A program made the translations under genes and the position numbers. Source: Escherichia phage vB_EcoM_SHAK7854. From it: a DNA stretch of 39,734 nucleotides. Shown here piece after piece: positions 35,001-39,734 of the stretch; within the stretch, counting starts at the first letter, position 1; each line of letters opens with the position of its first letter. The stretch is from the sequence record OR594182; one strand, written 5' to 3'. The notes under the pieces are model-generated. The model did not search any database, was not told the origin of the DNA, and saw only the letters and a list, made by a program, of their open reading frames with translations.

Positions 35001-35917
35001 GCCTGACTGGTAGTAAGCGTAAGTTCGATGACCGCTGGCTGAAGACCGCTGGTATATCTGACGAGCAGTGGAGTGGAATTAAGTCCCTAATCCGTGAGTC
35101 AGTGACTCGTGGGCCAGACGGGAAGTACACCATCAAGGATAAGAAGGCATTCAGTCAGGACCCAAGGGCTATGGACCTGTGGCGTATGGGTGACACCATC
35201 GCTGACGAGACGTTACTCCGGCCTCATAAGCTGTCAAACATGGACGCCAAGGCTTATGGTCCTCTCGCTAAGACTGTCCTTCAGTTTAAGAACTTCGTCA
35301 TCAAGTCTATCAATGGGAGAACCATGCGAACCTTCTATAACGCCACGAAGAACAACAGAGCGATTGACGCTGCACTGTCGACCGTGATGTCTATGGGTCT
35401 GGCTGGTATCTACTACATGGCTCAGGCGCATGTCAAGGCTTATGCTATGCAGGATGGTCGAGACCGTGACTACCTTAAGCAAGCTCTGGACCCAACGATG
35501 ATTGGCTATGCGGCCCTGTCCCGTAGTTCACATCTTGGTGGCCCACTTGGGGTAGCTAACATTCTGGGAGGCATCGCTGGATATGAGGACACTAAGATGC
35601 TCCGTTCGTCTATCCTACCTCGTTCTCCTACAGAGAAGCCTGAGCGTGCCATCGCGTATGGTGCAGCTACAAGTGACCCTGTGATGAATGTTGTTGGTAA
35701 CTTCTTGGAGCAGGTTCCAGCTTTCGGATATGCTGCTAACGTTGGCGCTTCGGCTTACAACTTGGCTGGCTACCTCAAGGCTGATACTCGTGTCAACGAG
35801 CGTGACTACATGACCGGGATGTATAATACGTTCCGTGAACTGGTTCCGAACGACCCCATTACCCAGAAGCTGCTGCTTGGAACGTTTGAGGAGCAAGGCA
35901 TCCACATCAAGGACTAA
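32030..35917 (+). CDS. internal virion protein C/D (T7 gp16 family) with divergent N-terminal domain
   Basis: 1295 aa; from about residue 200 collinear with T7 gp16 (RWNSHIWT-like, GGSPQNL, VRSPTGMQSGASGK, TYVPHVY, RPEVK, AYGISH, ENNSFLEARNLFDSD, RRVNGDIAIM, FFAKNAYMG, NGTTNYLLDA, RAMDLWR, NNRAIDAALS, DPTMIGYAALSRSS, LVPNDP). Confidence 0.93.
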   Translation: MATRGIRNNNPGNIRVSKDQWEGMTGDDGAFVTFDSPESGVRALGKNLLSYGRQGYDSIEKIINRWAPPNENDTKAYIDSVVAATGIPATQSLDLSDPDTLSSLAQAISFHETGSRYDPEVYQKGVARALNGISPKTPPVSANVFDALTEGLKAKPKVALGENLPTAAGLNIEGQAPESPNESFGEMFYKATGETMQEQEDRSTWFGFGAATEAEVKNSMVGVAIRAGQTEDSLDVIGDVFNPTRWNNHKWSREELDQIRNAGVLPQYYGVITGGSPQNLTELINLALENQKLDQEKAKAGTGAQLAAGVIGAGVDPLTYVPIAGQVGKGGKLVNKMFTVAAQSGALAGASEIARTSVAGGDAHVAEAILGGALFGGGMTAIADGLGRALGRNTNEFAGPATRLEARETARNVDGQDLSRLPIQEGEQTFSHQGVKFADVPNEPGSVRLEDGSILIGENPLNPKTRQVFDEVIEPERAAAGVNLGGLTEIGLKLLRSENPEIRGVAADLVRSPTGMQSGASGKIGTTASDVFERLRAVDHRFYNDIDDAVTEALKDPYFQTAFWRDSGAFRQDIYQRVSMAIEDGSGNLKAELTPGELKVYDLLKNQFDAKREMMENPAMFGRPDAQSIFPGSRFKGTYVPHVYSKQMKELYIKELGSPEALQEAIKKSWLTSYASRPEVKKRVDEALLEADPTLTPEGLAAAVDKYANDKAYGISHTEQFERSSVMEENINGLVGLENNSFLEARNLFDSDMSIVLPNGQTFSVNNLREWDMDKIVPAYNRRVNGDIAIMAGTGKTTKEMKDLVETMMNKAGDDGKLKGEVSTLRDTLKILTGRARRDGADDAAFATVMRTMTDLSFFAKNAYMGVQNLTEIGGMLARGNVRALLHGVPMFRDLAFRNKKVGASEIKDLHNVIFGKELDDSIRPSKQDVIDRLRSYSDLSRGTATALGTAKYYTGELVVRSPFTKVLNGTTNYLLDAGRQGFLSDIVEHSLTGSKRKFDDRWLKTAGISDEQWSGIKSLIRESVTRGPDGKYTIKDKKAFSQDPRAMDLWRMGDTIADETLLRPHKLSNMDAKAYGPLAKTVLQFKNFVIKSINGRTMRTFYNATKNNRAIDAALSTVMSMGLAGIYYMAQAHVKAYAMQDGRDRDYLKQALDPTMIGYAALSRSSHLGGPLGVANILGGIAGYEDTKMLRSSILPRSPTEKPERAIAYGAATSDPVMNVVGNFLEQVPAFGYAANVGASAYNLAGYLKADTRVNERDYMTGMYNTFRELVPNDPITQKLLLGTFEEQGIHIKD

Positions 35918-35935
35918 ACTATCACTATAGGAAAC
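35913..35935 (+). promoter_or_regulatory. phage RNAP promoter (phi17-like)
   Basis: ACTAAACTATCACTATAGGAAAC; overlaps gp16 stop codon. Confidence 0.7.
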
Positions 35936-35981
35936 TGGAGGCGCTACCATAGGTCTCCATTTAAATCACAAAGGAGGCATA

Positions 35982-38513
35982 ATGTCCACGATTACACAAT
36001 TCCCTTCAGGAACCACTCAGTACAGGATTGAGTTCGACTACCTAGCCAGAACGTTTGTTGTTGTTACGCTGGTGAATAGCTCTAACCCTACCCTGAACCG
36101 TGTACTGGAAGTTGGTCGAGATTACCGATTCCTTAATCCAACGATGATTGAGATGTTGGTTGACCAATCAGGTTTCGACATAGTTCGTATTCACCGTCAG
36201 ACTGGAACTGACTTAGTGGTAGATTTCAGGAATGGCTCAGTGTTGACAGCTAGTGACCTGACCAATTCAGAGCTTCAGGCTATCCATATTGCAGAAGAAG
36301 GTCGAGACCAAACGGTTGACTTAGCGAAGGAATATGCCGATGCTGCTGGTAGCTCTGCTGGCAACGCTAAGGATAGCGAGGACGAAGCACGCCGAATCGC
36401 TGCGAGTATCAGGGAAGCTGGTCTAATTGGCTATATTACCCGTCGCTCCTTCGAGAAAGGCTACAACGTTACAACATGGAGCGAGGTCCTGCTATGGGAA
36501 GAGGATGGTGATTATTACCGCTGGGATGGTACGCTTCCAAAGAACGTTCCTGCTGGTTCAACTCCTGAAACTTCCGGTGGGATTGGATTAGGTGCGTGGG
36601 TTAGTGTTGGTGATGCTGCTTTAAGAAGTCAGATTTCAAACCCGGAAGGGGCAATACTCTACCCGGAATTGCAGATGGCAAGATGGCGTGATGAGGGTGA
36701 TGTTCGAGGCTGGGGTGCTAAAGGGGATGGTGTAACAGATAGTACGGAGAATATAGCTGCTTCACTAAATTCTCAAAAAGCTGTCGTAGCATCAGAAGGT
36801 GTATTCTCTAGTTCTGGTATTAATAGTAATTACTGTAACTTAGACGGTAGAGGTAGTGGCGTGCTAAGTCACCGTTCCAGTACAGGTAACTACTTAGTAT
36901 TTAACAATCCACGTACAGGTCGCTTAAGTAATATTACGGTAGAAAGTAATAAGGCGACTGATACAACTCAGGGACATCAGGTATCTCTTGCCGGTGGAAG
37001 TGATGTTACTGTAAGTGACGTTAACTTCTCAAACGTTAAAGGTACTGGTTTCAGTTTAATCGCATACCCTAATGATGCGCCACCTGATGGACTTATGATT
37101 AAAGGCATTCGAGGTAGCTATTCCGGATATGCTACTAATAAGGTAGCAGGATGCGTACTTGCTGACTCATCAGTTAACTCCCTCATAGATAACGTCATTG
37201 CTAAGAACTACCCTCAGTTCGGAGCAGTAGAGTTGAAAGGTACAGCCAGTTATAACATAGTAAGTAATGTTATAGGGGCAGATTGCCAGCATGTAACTTA
37301 CAACGGCACTGAAGGGCCAATAGCTCCTTCTAATAACCTTATCAAGGGGGTGATGGCTAATAACCCTAAGTATGCAGCGGTTGTTGCAGGCAAAGGAAGT
37401 ACGAACTTAATCTCAGACGTGCTCGTAGATTACTCAACTTCTGATGCTAGGCAGTCTCATGGTGTTACCGTAGAAGGGTCTGATAACGTCATAAATAATG
37501 TGCTTATGTCAGGATGTGATGGTACTAACTCTTTAGGACAAGGGCAGACTGCTGCAATTGCACGCTTTATAGGTACAGCTAATAACAACTATGCGTCTGT
37601 ATTTCCTAGCTACAGTGCTACAGGTGTTATTACTTTCGAATCCGGCTCTACCCGTAACTTCGTAGAGGTAAAGCACCCTGGCAGGAGGAACGACCTTCTC
37701 AGTTCTGCTAGTACTATTGACGGTGCAGCTACTATTGACGGCACTAATAATAGTAACGTAGTGCACGCACCCGCCTTAGGGCAGTACATAGGTAGTATGT
37801 CAGGTAGGTTCGAATGGCGGATTAAGTCCATGTCACTTCCGTCAGGCGTTCTTACCTCGGCTGATAAGTACAGAATGCTTGGGGATGGTGCTGTGTCATT
37901 AGCTGTAGGAGGGGGTACTTCTTCTCAAGTTCGCTTATTTACTTCTGATGGTACTTATCGGACAGTATCGCTCACCAACGGTAACGTGCGTCTTCCTACC
38001 AGTAGCACAGGTTATTTGCAGTTAGGTTCTGATGCAATGACACCAGATAGTACTAATACATACGCATTAGGTTCCGCAAGTAGAGCATGGTCTGGCGGTT
38101 TTACTCAATCAGCATTCACTGTTGTCTCAGATGCTAGGGATAAAACAGAGCCTCTTAATATCTCAGATGCTTTACTGGATGCTTGGTCTGAAGTTGACTT
38201 TGTGCAGTTTCAGTACTTGGACCGAATTGAGGAGAAGGGTGCAGACTCAGCTAGATGGCACTTCGGCATCATCGCTCAGCGAGCTAAGGAGGCATTCGAA
38301 CGTCACGGTATAGATGCACATCGCTATGGCTTCCTGTGCTTCGACAGTTGGGATGATGTATACGAGGAAGATGCCAATGGCTCTCGTAAACTGATTACAC
38401 CAGCAGGTTCCCGCTACGGTATTCGTTACGAGGAAGTACTGATATTAGAGGCTGCGTTGATGCGGCGTACTATTAAGCGTATGCAGGAAGCATTAGCTGT
38501 TATGTCTAAGTGA
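35982..38513 (+). CDS. tail fiber / tailspike (gp17): T7-like N-terminal adaptor, beta-helix-like central domain, C-terminal intramolecular chaperone-like domain
   Basis: N-terminus FDYLARTFVVVTL, DYRF, VDFRNGSVLTASDL, IAEEGRDQT matches T7 gp17; central region has short repeated beta-strand-like segments; C-terminus carries SDARDK Ser-Lys motif. Confidence 0.9.
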   Translation: MSTITQFPSGTTQYRIEFDYLARTFVVVTLVNSSNPTLNRVLEVGRDYRFLNPTMIEMLVDQSGFDIVRIHRQTGTDLVVDFRNGSVLTASDLTNSELQAIHIAEEGRDQTVDLAKEYADAAGSSAGNAKDSEDEARRIAASIREAGLIGYITRRSFEKGYNVTTWSEVLLWEEDGDYYRWDGTLPKNVPAGSTPETSGGIGLGAWVSVGDAALRSQISNPEGAILYPELQMARWRDEGDVRGWGAKGDGVTDSTENIAASLNSQKAVVASEGVFSSSGINSNYCNLDGRGSGVLSHRSSTGNYLVFNNPRTGRLSNITVESNKATDTTQGHQVSLAGGSDVTVSDVNFSNVKGTGFSLIAYPNDAPPDGLMIKGIRGSYSGYATNKVAGCVLADSSVNSLIDNVIAKNYPQFGAVELKGTASYNIVSNVIGADCQHVTYNGTEGPIAPSNNLIKGVMANNPKYAAVVAGKGSTNLISDVLVDYSTSDARQSHGVTVEGSDNVINNVLMSGCDGTNSLGQGQTAAIARFIGTANNNYASVFPSYSATGVITFESGSTRNFVEVKHPGRRNDLLSSASTIDGAATIDGTNNSNVVHAPALGQYIGSMSGRFEWRIKSMSLPSGVLTSADKYRMLGDGAVSLAVGGGTSSQVRLFTSDGTYRTVSLTNGNVRLPTSSTGYLQLGSDAMTPDSTNTYALGSASRAWSGGFTQSAFTVVSDARDKTEPLNISDALLDAWSEVDFVQFQYLDRIEEKGADSARWHFGIIAQRAKEAFERHGIDAHRYGFLCFDSWDDVYEEDANGSRKLITPAGSRYGIRYEEVLILEAALMRRTIKRMQEALAVMSK

Positions 38514-38614
38514 GTAATACTGGAAAGAATCGAAGCCAGACTTTCTGCTCTTGAACAGAAGTAATAAACAAACCATTTTGCCATTAAGTTGGTGGGTAGA
38601 TGTTAGAGGGTTGT

Positions 38615-38623
38615 GGGGGGGGG
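38615..38623. repeat. G9 homopolymer tract in the gene 17-17.5 intergenic region
   Basis: nine consecutive G read directly. Confidence 0.9.
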
Positions 38624-38699
38624 TAGAGACTAACTACACGCTAACCAACGTATGTAACAACTTTGGGTCACGGACGACCCGCTTTAAACTGGAGGTTTT

Positions 38700-39255: not shown

Positions 39256-39705
39256 ATGCTCGAATTTTTAAAGAGAGCGGCTCCGTGGTTACTTGCAGCA
39301 GTGATGTTTGCTGGTGGCTACCACACCGCTAACAATAAGTGGGAGGCTAAGGTAAATGAAGAATACACCTCGAATCTTAAGGCATCGGAAGATACAAGGC
39401 TTGCTGTCCAAGCTGAAGTCAACAAAGTGTCCAAACGGTTTCAGGACGAAATGTCCTCGCTGGAAGGCAGCACTGATAGGATTATTGCTGATCTTCAGTC
39501 TGACAATAAGCGGTTGCGCATCCGAGTCAAACCAACGAGTGGAACCACGCAAAGTGACGGTCGATGCTTCATTGATGGTTACGCCGAACTTGACGAACGA
39601 GATGCTAAACGTCTTATCGCCATCGGAGTGAAAGGAGACAAGTGGATTAAGGCCCTTCAAGACACTGTGAGAGCCTTACAGCAAGAGAAGGAGGTGACGC
39701 ATTGA
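39256..39705 (+). CDS. Rz-like inner-membrane spanin (T7 gp18.5 family)
   Basis: MLEFL, LEGSTDRIIADLQSDNKRLRIRVK, ELDERDAKRL, WIKALQDTVRALQ matches T7 gp18.5. Confidence 0.88.
   Translation: MLEFLKRAAPWLLAAVMFAGGYHTANNKWEAKVNEEYTSNLKASEDTRLAVQAEVNKVSKRFQDEMSSLEGSTDRIIADLQSDNKRLRIRVKPTSGTTQSDGRCFIDGYAELDERDAKRLIAIGVKGDKWIKALQDTVRALQQEKEVTH
39356..39631 (+). CDS. Rz1-like outer-membrane lipoprotein spanin embedded in gp18.5 (+1 frame)
   Basis: PRWKAALIGLLLIFSLTISGCASES lipobox with Cys, then VDASLMVTPNLTNEMLNV. Confidence 0.7.
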   Translation: MKNTPRILRHRKIQGLLSKLKSTKCPNGFRTKCPRWKAALIGLLLIFSLTISGCASESNQRVEPRKVTVDASLMVTPNLTNEMLNVLSPSE

Positions 39706-39734
39706 GTAAAGACTTAGTGGCGCGTCAGGCGCTA
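39702..39734 (+). CDS. N-terminal fragment of terminase large subunit (TTG start), 3-prime partial at window end
   Basis: AAGGAGGTGA RBS then TTG; reading frame is contiguous with position 1. Confidence 0.5.
   Translation, partial: MSKDLVARQAL

Follow-up and report, generated by a model that had tools for sequence, protein, structure and literature searches.

Gene 17 and the Layout of Its Product

The window analysed here (39,734 nucleotides of Escherichia phage vB_EcoM_SHAK7854, record OR594182) is a Kayfunavirus (K1F-like) genome. Its gene 17, at 35982..38513 (this and all the features below lie on the + strand), is an open reading frame for a chimeric tailspike of 843 aa, with a calculated precursor mass of 90.3 kDa. 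The product, gp17, is 97–99% identical to 843-aa proteins from other Kayfunavirus genomes, of which close relatives have been deposited under the name “hypothetical protein”, and it aligns at ~97% identity with PDB 9vvr, the tail spike of phage E1004.

The protein begins with a T7-type tail-fibre N-terminal adapter (residues 10–115, 36009..36326; PF03906, E = 3.6e-15) and a Tail_spike_N domain of the TSP1/gp66 type (residues 156–211, 36447..36614; PF18668, E = 3.2e-19), the latter within a segment derived from a K1F-type gene. The K5 (heparosan) lyase right-handed β-helix catalytic domain then occupies about residues 242–639 (36705..37898) and is followed, across a boundary that is approximate, by a stalk of about residues 640–715 (37899..38126) lying ahead of the predicted cleavage site. 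The stalk aligns with residues 843–910 of the endosialidase NF (endoNF) stalk and also with the C-terminal part of the mature K5 lyase KflA in 2x3h; its conserved columns include P688, N692, G697, and R701, and V715 is at position −1. Its homologues suggest a triple-β-helix, in a region where the model has a pLDDT below 50.

The remainder, residues 716–843 (38127..38510; 14.8 kDa), is a C-terminal intramolecular chaperone/peptidase S74 domain (CTD; PF13884), which runs to the TGA stop codon at 38511–38513. It opens with Ser716 (codon 38127..38129), the predicted nucleophile and cleavage-site serine, and with Lys721 (codon 38142..38144), the predicted general base of a Ser-Lys dyad. Further on come the core motif A757-R-W-H-F-G-I-I-A-Q766 (38250..38279), which is conserved in homologues, a β-hairpin “tentacle” of predicted strands (residues 785–814, 38334..38423), and a predicted long C-terminal helix (residues 816–842, 38427..38507) with a pLDDT of ~80–90. 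No NCBIfam match was obtained, nor was there an Rfam match across the whole window; scans for promoters and terminators and RNA folding of the spacer between gene 17 and the holin gene gave nothing exceeding shuffled sequences.

A Recombinant Gene and the Relic of Its Predecessor

Similarity to K1F gp17 extends from residue 1 to about residues 255–263, at 93% identity, and similarity to KflA begins at residue 242. A three-way DNA alignment places the approximate 5′ recombination joint between K1F-like and K5A-kflA-like DNA at 36735..36750, inside a shared GAxGDGxTD motif. Judged by these alignments, gp17 is a chimera of a K1F-type N-terminal part and the module of the K5 lyase KflA. The descent of this module is clear, as residues 242–843 are 95% identical to KflA 31–632 of phage K5A (Y10025.2), and the CTDs share 122 of their 128 residues. 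The phmmer search also gave E = 1.1e-290 to the K5 lyase structure 2x3h, with near-identity over residues 242–716, and 2x3h was the best Foldseek match of the full-length gp17 model (E = 9e-37, 95% identity). On this sequence and model evidence, gp17 carries a right-handed β-helix K5 lyase domain of the KflA type, for which enzymatic activity is predicted.

What the module displaced can still be read just past the stop codon, where an untranslated stretch of 49 nt (38516..38564) is the relic of the 3′ end of an endosialidase gene. Its in-frame translation finishes with ...LERIEARLSALEQK and two stops. The relic opens a longer region of homology, 38516–38699, that is 94.6% identical to K1F 35812–35993, and the first 49 nt of this region correspond to the end of K1F gene 17.

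K1F is the type phage of the genus, and its own gp17, endoNF (CIMCD structure 3gw6; the MEROPS S74 holotype), occupies the same gene slot as the lyase does here; its catalytic module is a sialidase β-propeller, whereas that of the present gp17 is a lyase β-helix. KflA, for its part, has an N-terminus of only ~30 aa, which docks on an adapter protein in phages of the Vectrevirus/K1-5 type, whereas in gp17 the lyase module is fused to a 240-aa K1F-type adapter with its Tail_spike_N domain.

The C-Terminal Domain Belongs to the S74 Family

A sequence-only reading of this DNA had proposed that the last 127 or so residues of gp17 form a self-cleaving chaperone domain with a Ser-Lys dyad, and had suggested an S74 profile search as a check. 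The interpretation is supported. The SDARDK sequence opens at residue 716, with its first codon starting at nucleotide 38127, the Lys comes five residues after the Ser, and the domain measures 128 aa, or 127 aa if the Ser is left out. PF13884 (Peptidase_S74) matches residues 716–776 with E = 2.1e-15 over profile positions 1–57 of 58, scoring 52.8 bits with the full protein and 57.2 bits with the CTD alone, well over the gathering score of 22. PHROG tail-spike families extend over the CTD too.

In a BLASTP alignment with K1F gp17, the Ser and Lys singled out earlier fall on S911 and K916, which form the catalytic dyad of endoNF (PMC8326128), and the correspondence of S716 and K721 to the dyad positions also holds for 3gud, 3gw6, 6eu4, and 7y5s. 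S716 thus aligns with the first residue of 3gud, the CIMCD of the GA-1 neck appendage gp12, and with the S911A site of 3gw6. Against the PDB, phmmer matched the CTD to 3gud (1.6e-23), 3gw6 (6.1e-21), and 4uw8 (6.7e-10), and the core motif has close counterparts in endoNF (ARIHFGVIAQ) and GA-1 gp12 (ARYHFGVIAQ).

The fold agrees. With an AlphaFold model of residues 681–843, Foldseek gave E < 1e-3 solely to 3gw6, 3gud, and 4uw8, each with a probability of 1.00, and the result for the CTD within the full-length model was the same; these models are monomeric and of moderate confidence (mean pLDDT 63–66), and the stalk is not resolved in them. The CTD is modelled as helices, four strands (785–790, 793–796, 802–806, and 809–814, with equivalent strands in a second model), and a 27-residue terminal helix (816–842) that aligns with the terminal helices of endoNF and GA-1 gp12. 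A role for the tentacle may be proposed by analogy with T5 pb1 and endoNF (PMC4690869). The terminal helix acts as a coiled coil in characterised members (PMC4690869, PMC8326128), and that of gp17 is expected, from the model and this analogy, to form a trimeric one. KflA crystallised with three chains (2x3h), and gp17 is probably a trimer as well.

Among solved chaperones, the best-scoring is that of GA-1, a Bacillus phage, which is equal in length to the CTD, sets SDERHK over SDARDK, and gives a TM score of 0.62–0.69 normalised to the target, although its host and passenger domain are unrelated to those of gp17. EndoNF shares 29% identity with gp17 over stalk and CTD and matches in fold, but its CTD is longer (153 versus 127 aa) and carries a larger insert separating the core from the tentacle. 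The more distant match, 4uw8, is the same domain in the L-shaped tail fibre protein pb1 of T5, where it has a fibre tip, not an enzyme, as its passenger; its dyad is S1264/K1269, and a Ser-to-Ala change blocks cleavage (PMC4690869).

The contrast with T7 gp17 that had been drawn from the sequence is correct because the T7 protein shares the N-terminal adapter only: the match, to PDB 7boz, covers residues 7–116 and reflects the PF03906 domain common to both, whereas no T7-type fibre shaft or tip was seen in gp17, the rest of which is K5 lyase and S74 domain. T7 gp17 is not known to have an S74 domain or a depolymerase, or to undergo autoproteolysis. A better comparison is with K1F gp17 and, above all, with KflA.

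Conservation of the Dyad and Its Surroundings

Conservation was assessed in 72 distinct IMG/VR proteins, 35–99% identical to gp17, from loci retrieved with the patterns [LIF]C[YF]D[ES]W and FERHG[LI]D[AP]; these replaced a word-indexed CTD search, which had given 11 proteins, mostly fragments. S716 and K721 are invariant in all 72, as are K752, A757, R758, H760, G762, Q766, G809, and R815; G753 and A765, both present in gp17, are invariant or nearly so. These residues cover the core motifs of the family, K-G...A-R-x-H-F-G-x-I-A-Q and G-x-x-x-G-I-R. The invariance of C786, D788, and W790 is biased because these residues lie inside the first retrieval pattern.

Two positions of the stalk differ from the usual arrangement. 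An Arg from the neighbouring chain acts as a folding sensor or oxyanion helper (R897 in endoNF, R1250 in T5), usually at position −14. It is at −14 in 45 of the 72 homologues, while gp17 has its stalk Arg at −15 (R701) and Ala at −14. This R-A-W arrangement is identical in KflA, which is reported as processed, and both KflA and K1-5 gp46 have the stalk motif together with the catalytic Ser and Lys, as in gp17. The second difference is at −1, where gp17 has Val (V715) and 66 of the 72 homologues, as well as KflA, have Thr; at +4, gp17 has Asp and KflA Cys. A preprint on deep mutational scanning of the K1F tailspike does not discuss S911, K916, or T910.

Processing and a Proposed Mechanism

Self-cleavage is established knowledge for this module because the processing of KflA is documented. 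A size of 52 kDa, the “expected size after proteolysis”, is reported for the purified K5 depolymerase (PMC5696595), and a review table lists the K1-5 ORF46 lyase as “67/mature form 52” (PMC5380687). The calculated masses are 66.86 kDa for full KflA and 52.24 kDa for KflA 1–505, the latter matching the reported 52 kDa. The SEQRES of 2x3h ends exactly on KflA S505, the Ser equivalent to S716. This chain end puts the cut after the Ser, contrary to the placement before the Ser given for T5 and K1F (PMC4690869). In a passage of PMC8326128 that cites Schwarzer 2007, K5 lyases are counted as one of four founding ICA families. Autoproteolytic release is likewise documented for T5 and endoNF, and endosialidases truncated ahead of this domain are known not to give soluble trimers. 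By analogy, gp17 is predicted to be a 90.3 kDa precursor that yields a mature spike of ~75.6 kDa and a domain of 14.7 kDa.

Residues 716–843 are the CIMCD/ICA (MEROPS S74) of a K5 lyase module mounted on a K1F-type gp17 adapter, and they very probably release themselves. The analysis establishes the identity and fold of the domain, its conserved dyad, and its descent from KflA; homologues are the source for its chaperone role, for a dependence of cleavage on trimerisation, and for cleavage in gp17. In the mechanism that we propose, the CTD would bring three nascent chains into register via the coiled coil of its C-terminal helix and the β-hairpin tentacles, and this registration would nucleate the folding of the preceding stalk and β-helix trimer. 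Once the stalk is correctly folded, Lys721 would activate Ser716 and the chain would be cut at the Ser. The 14.7-kDa CTD would then be released, leaving the ~75.6 kDa mature spike kinetically locked, and virions would be expected to contain the mature spike only.

Alternative Readings

One alternative is that the S74 domain is kept as an attached chaperone that is no longer cleaved, because of either the Val at −1 or the new N-terminal context. The replacement of the prevailing Thr by V715 is in its favour. The 9vvr structure of the E1004 tail might also seem to be, since it models 121–140 N-terminal residues only (up to ~140); however, it says nothing on the C-terminus in virions, precisely because the modelled part is N-terminal, and a literature search found no paper on 9VVR or the E1004 spike. 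Against this reading, the dyad and every other invariant residue are intact, and Val or Leu is found at −1 in four other lineages (40–62% identity) and in PDB 6eu4 (VTVVSDARKK). Moreover, in the mechanism given for T5/K1F, the −1 residue (Thr1263) uses its carbonyl to position the guanidinium of the Arg (PMC4690869), and a Val might serve likewise. Retention of the CTD would probably be costly, since a T5 fibre left uncleaved cannot compete for receptor (PMC4690869). We consider such a loss of cleavage very unlikely. A related proposal, and a highly improbable one, is that the change from Thr to Val at −1, a fixed difference of the K5-lyase chimeras of Kayfunavirus, combines with the foreign adapter to alter processing, making it slower, absent, or shifted to another bond; if so, some virion spikes would keep the 14.7-kDa chaperone, which might cap the lyase stalk as a regulated “safety cap”.

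It could also be asked whether the CTD, like the endosialidase relic, is a decaying and dispensable remnant left behind when the modules were exchanged, given that the gene is recombinant and a true relic lies directly downstream; the probability of this is minimal, for the reading frame is intact, the dN/dS of the CTD relative to kflA is 0.18, the family-invariant residues are all retained, and PF13884 is present in all 17 of the 843-aa relatives among the matches listed. The idea that SDARDK is a chance Ser-x4-Lys on an ordinary fibre tip that acts neither as a protease nor as a chaperone starts from the fact that S....K occurs four times in gp17 (residues 125, 261, 450, and 716) against 2.5 expected from composition, which is within chance and makes the motif alone weightless, but it is refuted by the profile, PDB, conservation, and Foldseek results, as similarity to the S74 profile, to three solved chaperone structures, and to the KflA CTD (E from 1e-10 to 1e-91) extends over the whole 128-aa region and SDARDK falls exactly on the catalytic positions. 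Since the bare pattern is not significant, the argument for a self-releasing S74 chaperone rests on the profiles and on domain-level similarity.

Implications for the K1F-like Phages

The S74 feature of gp17 is real but ordinary; the current understanding of the S74 family is unchanged by these findings, the value of which lies in annotation and engineering. Gene 17 is properly annotated as encoding a tailspike that combines a K5-capsule lyase and a self-cleaving S74 chaperone. Constructs for expressing the depolymerase should retain the CTD, and a product of ~75.6 kDa is to be expected from them. Together, the chimera and the relic provide a clean example of K1F-like phages switching capsule specificity from K1 to K5, a switch in which enzyme, stalk, and chaperone are exchanged together as one cassette.

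The C-Terminal Domain of gp17

Gene 17 (35982–38513, plus strand, with its TGA stop at 38511–38513) encodes gp17, a tailspike of 843 aa whose C-terminal domain (CTD, from residue 716 on) is, on every sequence-level and fold-level measure open to testing in silico, a textbook case of peptidase family S74, the self-cleaving intramolecular chaperones. The sequence-only reading had taken SDARDK, at the start of “127 or so residues” encoded at 38127–38513, for a Ser-Lys dyad. Translation of the ORF confirms these coordinates, sequence and length exactly: on the plus strand, the codon of Ser716 starts at nt 38127 and that of Lys721 lies at 38142–38144, and the stretch comprises 128 aa including the serine, or 127 aa after it. 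The other frames and the opposite strand at the 3′ end of the gene contain only short ORFs of 52–63 aa and nothing notable.

A bare S-x4-K motif does not exceed chance (four occurrences in gp17 versus 2.5 expected from composition); it is the domain match that is significant and not the motif alone. A profile search against the S74 family, which the same reading had called for, was positive: PF13884 (Peptidase_S74, “Chaperone of endosialidase”) matches residues 716–776 with 52.8 bits for the whole of gp17 and 57.2 bits (E = 2.1e-15) for the C-terminus alone, the gathering score being 22, and the match begins at profile position 1, placed on Ser716. PHROG tail-spike families span the whole 128-residue stretch, the lowest E being 6e-78. 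A search of PDB sequences with the last 163 residues of gp17 found all three structurally characterised intramolecular chaperones, which are those of GA-1 gp12 (3gud, E = 1.6e-23), endosialidase NF with S911A (3gw6, E = 6.1e-21) and T5 pb1 (4uw8, E = 6.7e-10), and also 6eu4 and 7y5s, tail proteins with an S74 domain in the deposited sequence.

An AlphaFold2 model of residues 681–843 (mean pLDDT 65.6, mostly 70–90 in the CTD and below 50 in the stalk) predicts several elements: short helices, a hairpin region of four strands and, at the end of the chain, a helix of 27 residues. In a Foldseek search of the PDB, ten matches reached E < 1e-3, all of them 3gw6, 3gud or 4uw8 chains with a probability of 1.00, a comparison that concerns topology and not active-site geometry since the models are monomers and the solved homologue domains are trimeric. 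The next matches were unrelated ribosomal proteins (E ~1e-2). With a full-length gp17 model, the CTD matches were unchanged, and the best match was 2x3h, the structure of the K5A lyase (E = 9e-37, 95% identity).

The Catalytic Dyad and Conserved Residues

BLASTP against K1F gp17 (endosialidase NF, or endoNF) aligns S716 with S911 and K721 with K916, so the serine and lysine singled out from the sequence do sit on what has been reported as the endoNF Ser-Lys dyad (PMC8326128). SDARDK also lies under SDERHK, the first residues of 3gud, and 3gw6 has an engineered Ala at the S716 position with a Lys five residues on.

Homologues from 80 loci in IMG/VR viral contigs gave 72 distinct sequences (35–99% identity), which were aligned. 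S716 and K721 are invariant in all 72, and D717 is present in 71; the block K752-G...A757-R-x-H760-F-G762-x-I-A-Q766 shows no or almost no variation, and the same holds for G809 and R815. No variation is seen at C786, D788 and W790 either, but one of the two peptide patterns by which the sequences were retrieved includes these positions, which biases the result; the dyad positions are free of that bias.

The residue preceding the serine (−1) is V715 (38124–38126) here, as in the nearest relatives of this phage, and Thr in KflA, the K5-capsule (heparosan) lyase of coliphage K5A, and in 66 of the 72 homologues; Val or Leu recurs here in four other lineages (40–62% identity) and in 6eu4. In the published mechanism, it is the carbonyl of Thr1263, the residue at −1, that positions an Arg guanidinium (PMC4690869). 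On that basis, V715 is judged unlikely to matter and probably has no functional effect. The stalk Arg, the proposed folding sensor, is at −15 rather than −14, an arrangement shared with KflA, and the ElmA-like prophage homologues are without it entirely.

Predicted Cleavage and the K5 Lyase Precedent

By analogy, the mechanism for the gp17 CTD is most likely as follows. The CTD would trimerise via its C-terminal helix, as in its homologues, and would embrace the stalk and beta-helix that precede it and serve as their template; after correct assembly of the stalk, Ser716, activated by Lys721, would cut the chain at the Ser, and the departure of the CTD would leave the mature trimer kinetically trapped. 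Such a mechanism has been described for T5 pb1 and endoNF (PMC4690869) and for MyRF and endoNF (PMC8326128). The calculated masses are 90.31 kDa for the precursor and, as predicted products, 75.5–75.6 kDa for the mature spike and 14.7–14.8 kDa for the freed CTD.

According to PMC8326128 (citing Schwarzer et al. 2007), K5 lyases are one of the four phage protein families in which the domain was originally defined. A purified K5 depolymerase ran at 52 kDa, “in accordance with expected sizes after proteolysis” (Lin et al. 2017, PMC5696595), and the K1-5 ORF46 lyase was tabulated as “67 / mature form 52” (Latka et al. 2017, PMC5380687). Taken together with the masses calculated for KflA (66.86 kDa for residues 1–632 and 52.24 kDa for 1–505), these sizes place the cleavage at S505, the equivalent of S716 in gp17. 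The deposited sequence of 2x3h stops exactly at the equivalent serine.

The sources disagree as to whether the scissile bond lies before or after the Ser, an 87-Da difference that does not affect the conclusion. In 2007, Schwarzer’s group reportedly found, in one representative per family, that the CTD is removed by a cut following a serine without exception conserved, and Ala in place of this serine is said to prevent cleavage. Compared with kflA, dN/dS is 0.18 in the CTD and 0.30 in the lyase and stalk (small counts), which fits purifying selection acting on a domain that would be discarded from the virion.

Gene 17 as a Chimera

The window holds the whole genome of a Kayfunavirus (K1F-like, T7 supergroup). 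The record opens exactly on the start codon (ATG) of the gene for the large terminase (576 aa, 1–1731), so this linear T7-like genome is given in rotated form, with its physical ends and terminal repeats at internal positions of the window.

Residues 1–263 of gp17 are 93% identical to K1F gp17 and hold the T7-type adapter (PF03906) and Tail_spike_N (PF18668), whilst residues 242–843 are 95% identical, gap-free, to KflA 31–632 (122 of 128 identical in the CTD). On these alignments, gene 17 is a clean chimera of a K1F gp17 N-terminus and a KflA module. The 5′ joint, from K1F-like to kflA-like sequence, lies at about 36735–36750 (within 36705–36770) on the plus strand, inside a GAxGDGxTD motif common to both parents, and the 3′ joint is at most ~20 nt from the stop codon. 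The CTD is a near-identical copy of one founding S74 example, and nothing new in kind. The contrast drawn earlier with T7 gp17 is correct, the N-terminal adapter alone being in common, but the informative comparison is with K1F gp17, from the type member of the genus, which has the same kind of domain. Among 120 listed gp17 relatives, many share the N-terminus, some of these with PF13884 and many without.

After the gp17 stop, the same frame reads VILERIEARLSALEQK and two stop codons (38514–38564), the exact C-terminus of the K1F endosialidase. The stretch 38516–38699 is 94.6% identical to K1F 35812–35993, which covers the K1F gene 17 end plus the spacer between that gene and the holin gene; the first 49 nt of this K1F stretch are the last codons of the endosialidase gene. 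Positions 38514–38564 are a relic of the displaced endosialidase gene and mark the 3′ recombination joint. The relic shows that the K5 lyase cassette, which replaced the enzyme, stalk and chaperone cassette of the endosialidase, arrived with a chaperone of its own, and that the exchange stopped right where the sequence encoding the CTD ends.

The gp17–holin spacer also contains a nine-G run (38612–38620), against GGAGG in K1F and TGTGG in a close relative; either the homopolymer has genuinely expanded or the run is an error of sequencing or assembly. Further downstream is an Rz-like spanin gene (149 aa, 39256–39705), in which is embedded a +1-frame ORF (39356–39631) with a lipobox-like LTISGC, the expected Rz1 o-spanin nested in Rz; annotation of relatives was used alongside the ORF itself. 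In MZ234011, the closest K5-lyase relative, an HNH homing endonuclease gene starts directly after Rz, at a position where K1F has the large terminase gene; this HNH gene is absent from the window (record end 39706–39734 and start 1–1731).

The 843-aa protein occurs in many sequenced Kayfunavirus genomes (93–99% identity), mostly annotated “hypothetical protein”, and is the tail spike of phage E1004 (PDB 9vvr), a structure that models only 121–140 N-terminal residues and is silent on the C-terminus. The K5 lyase and S74 cassette (36705–38510) is found behind at least five N-terminal architectures of 632–1012 aa: 632–640 aa (Vectrevirus/K1-5 type), 755/756 aa, 784 aa (73-kb UE-S5b-type phages), 843 aa (Kayfunavirus) and 1012 aa; an 820-aa E. 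coli prophage protein is also related (57% identical). This variety of N-terminal attachment modules illustrates the mobility of the K5 lyase and S74 cassette.
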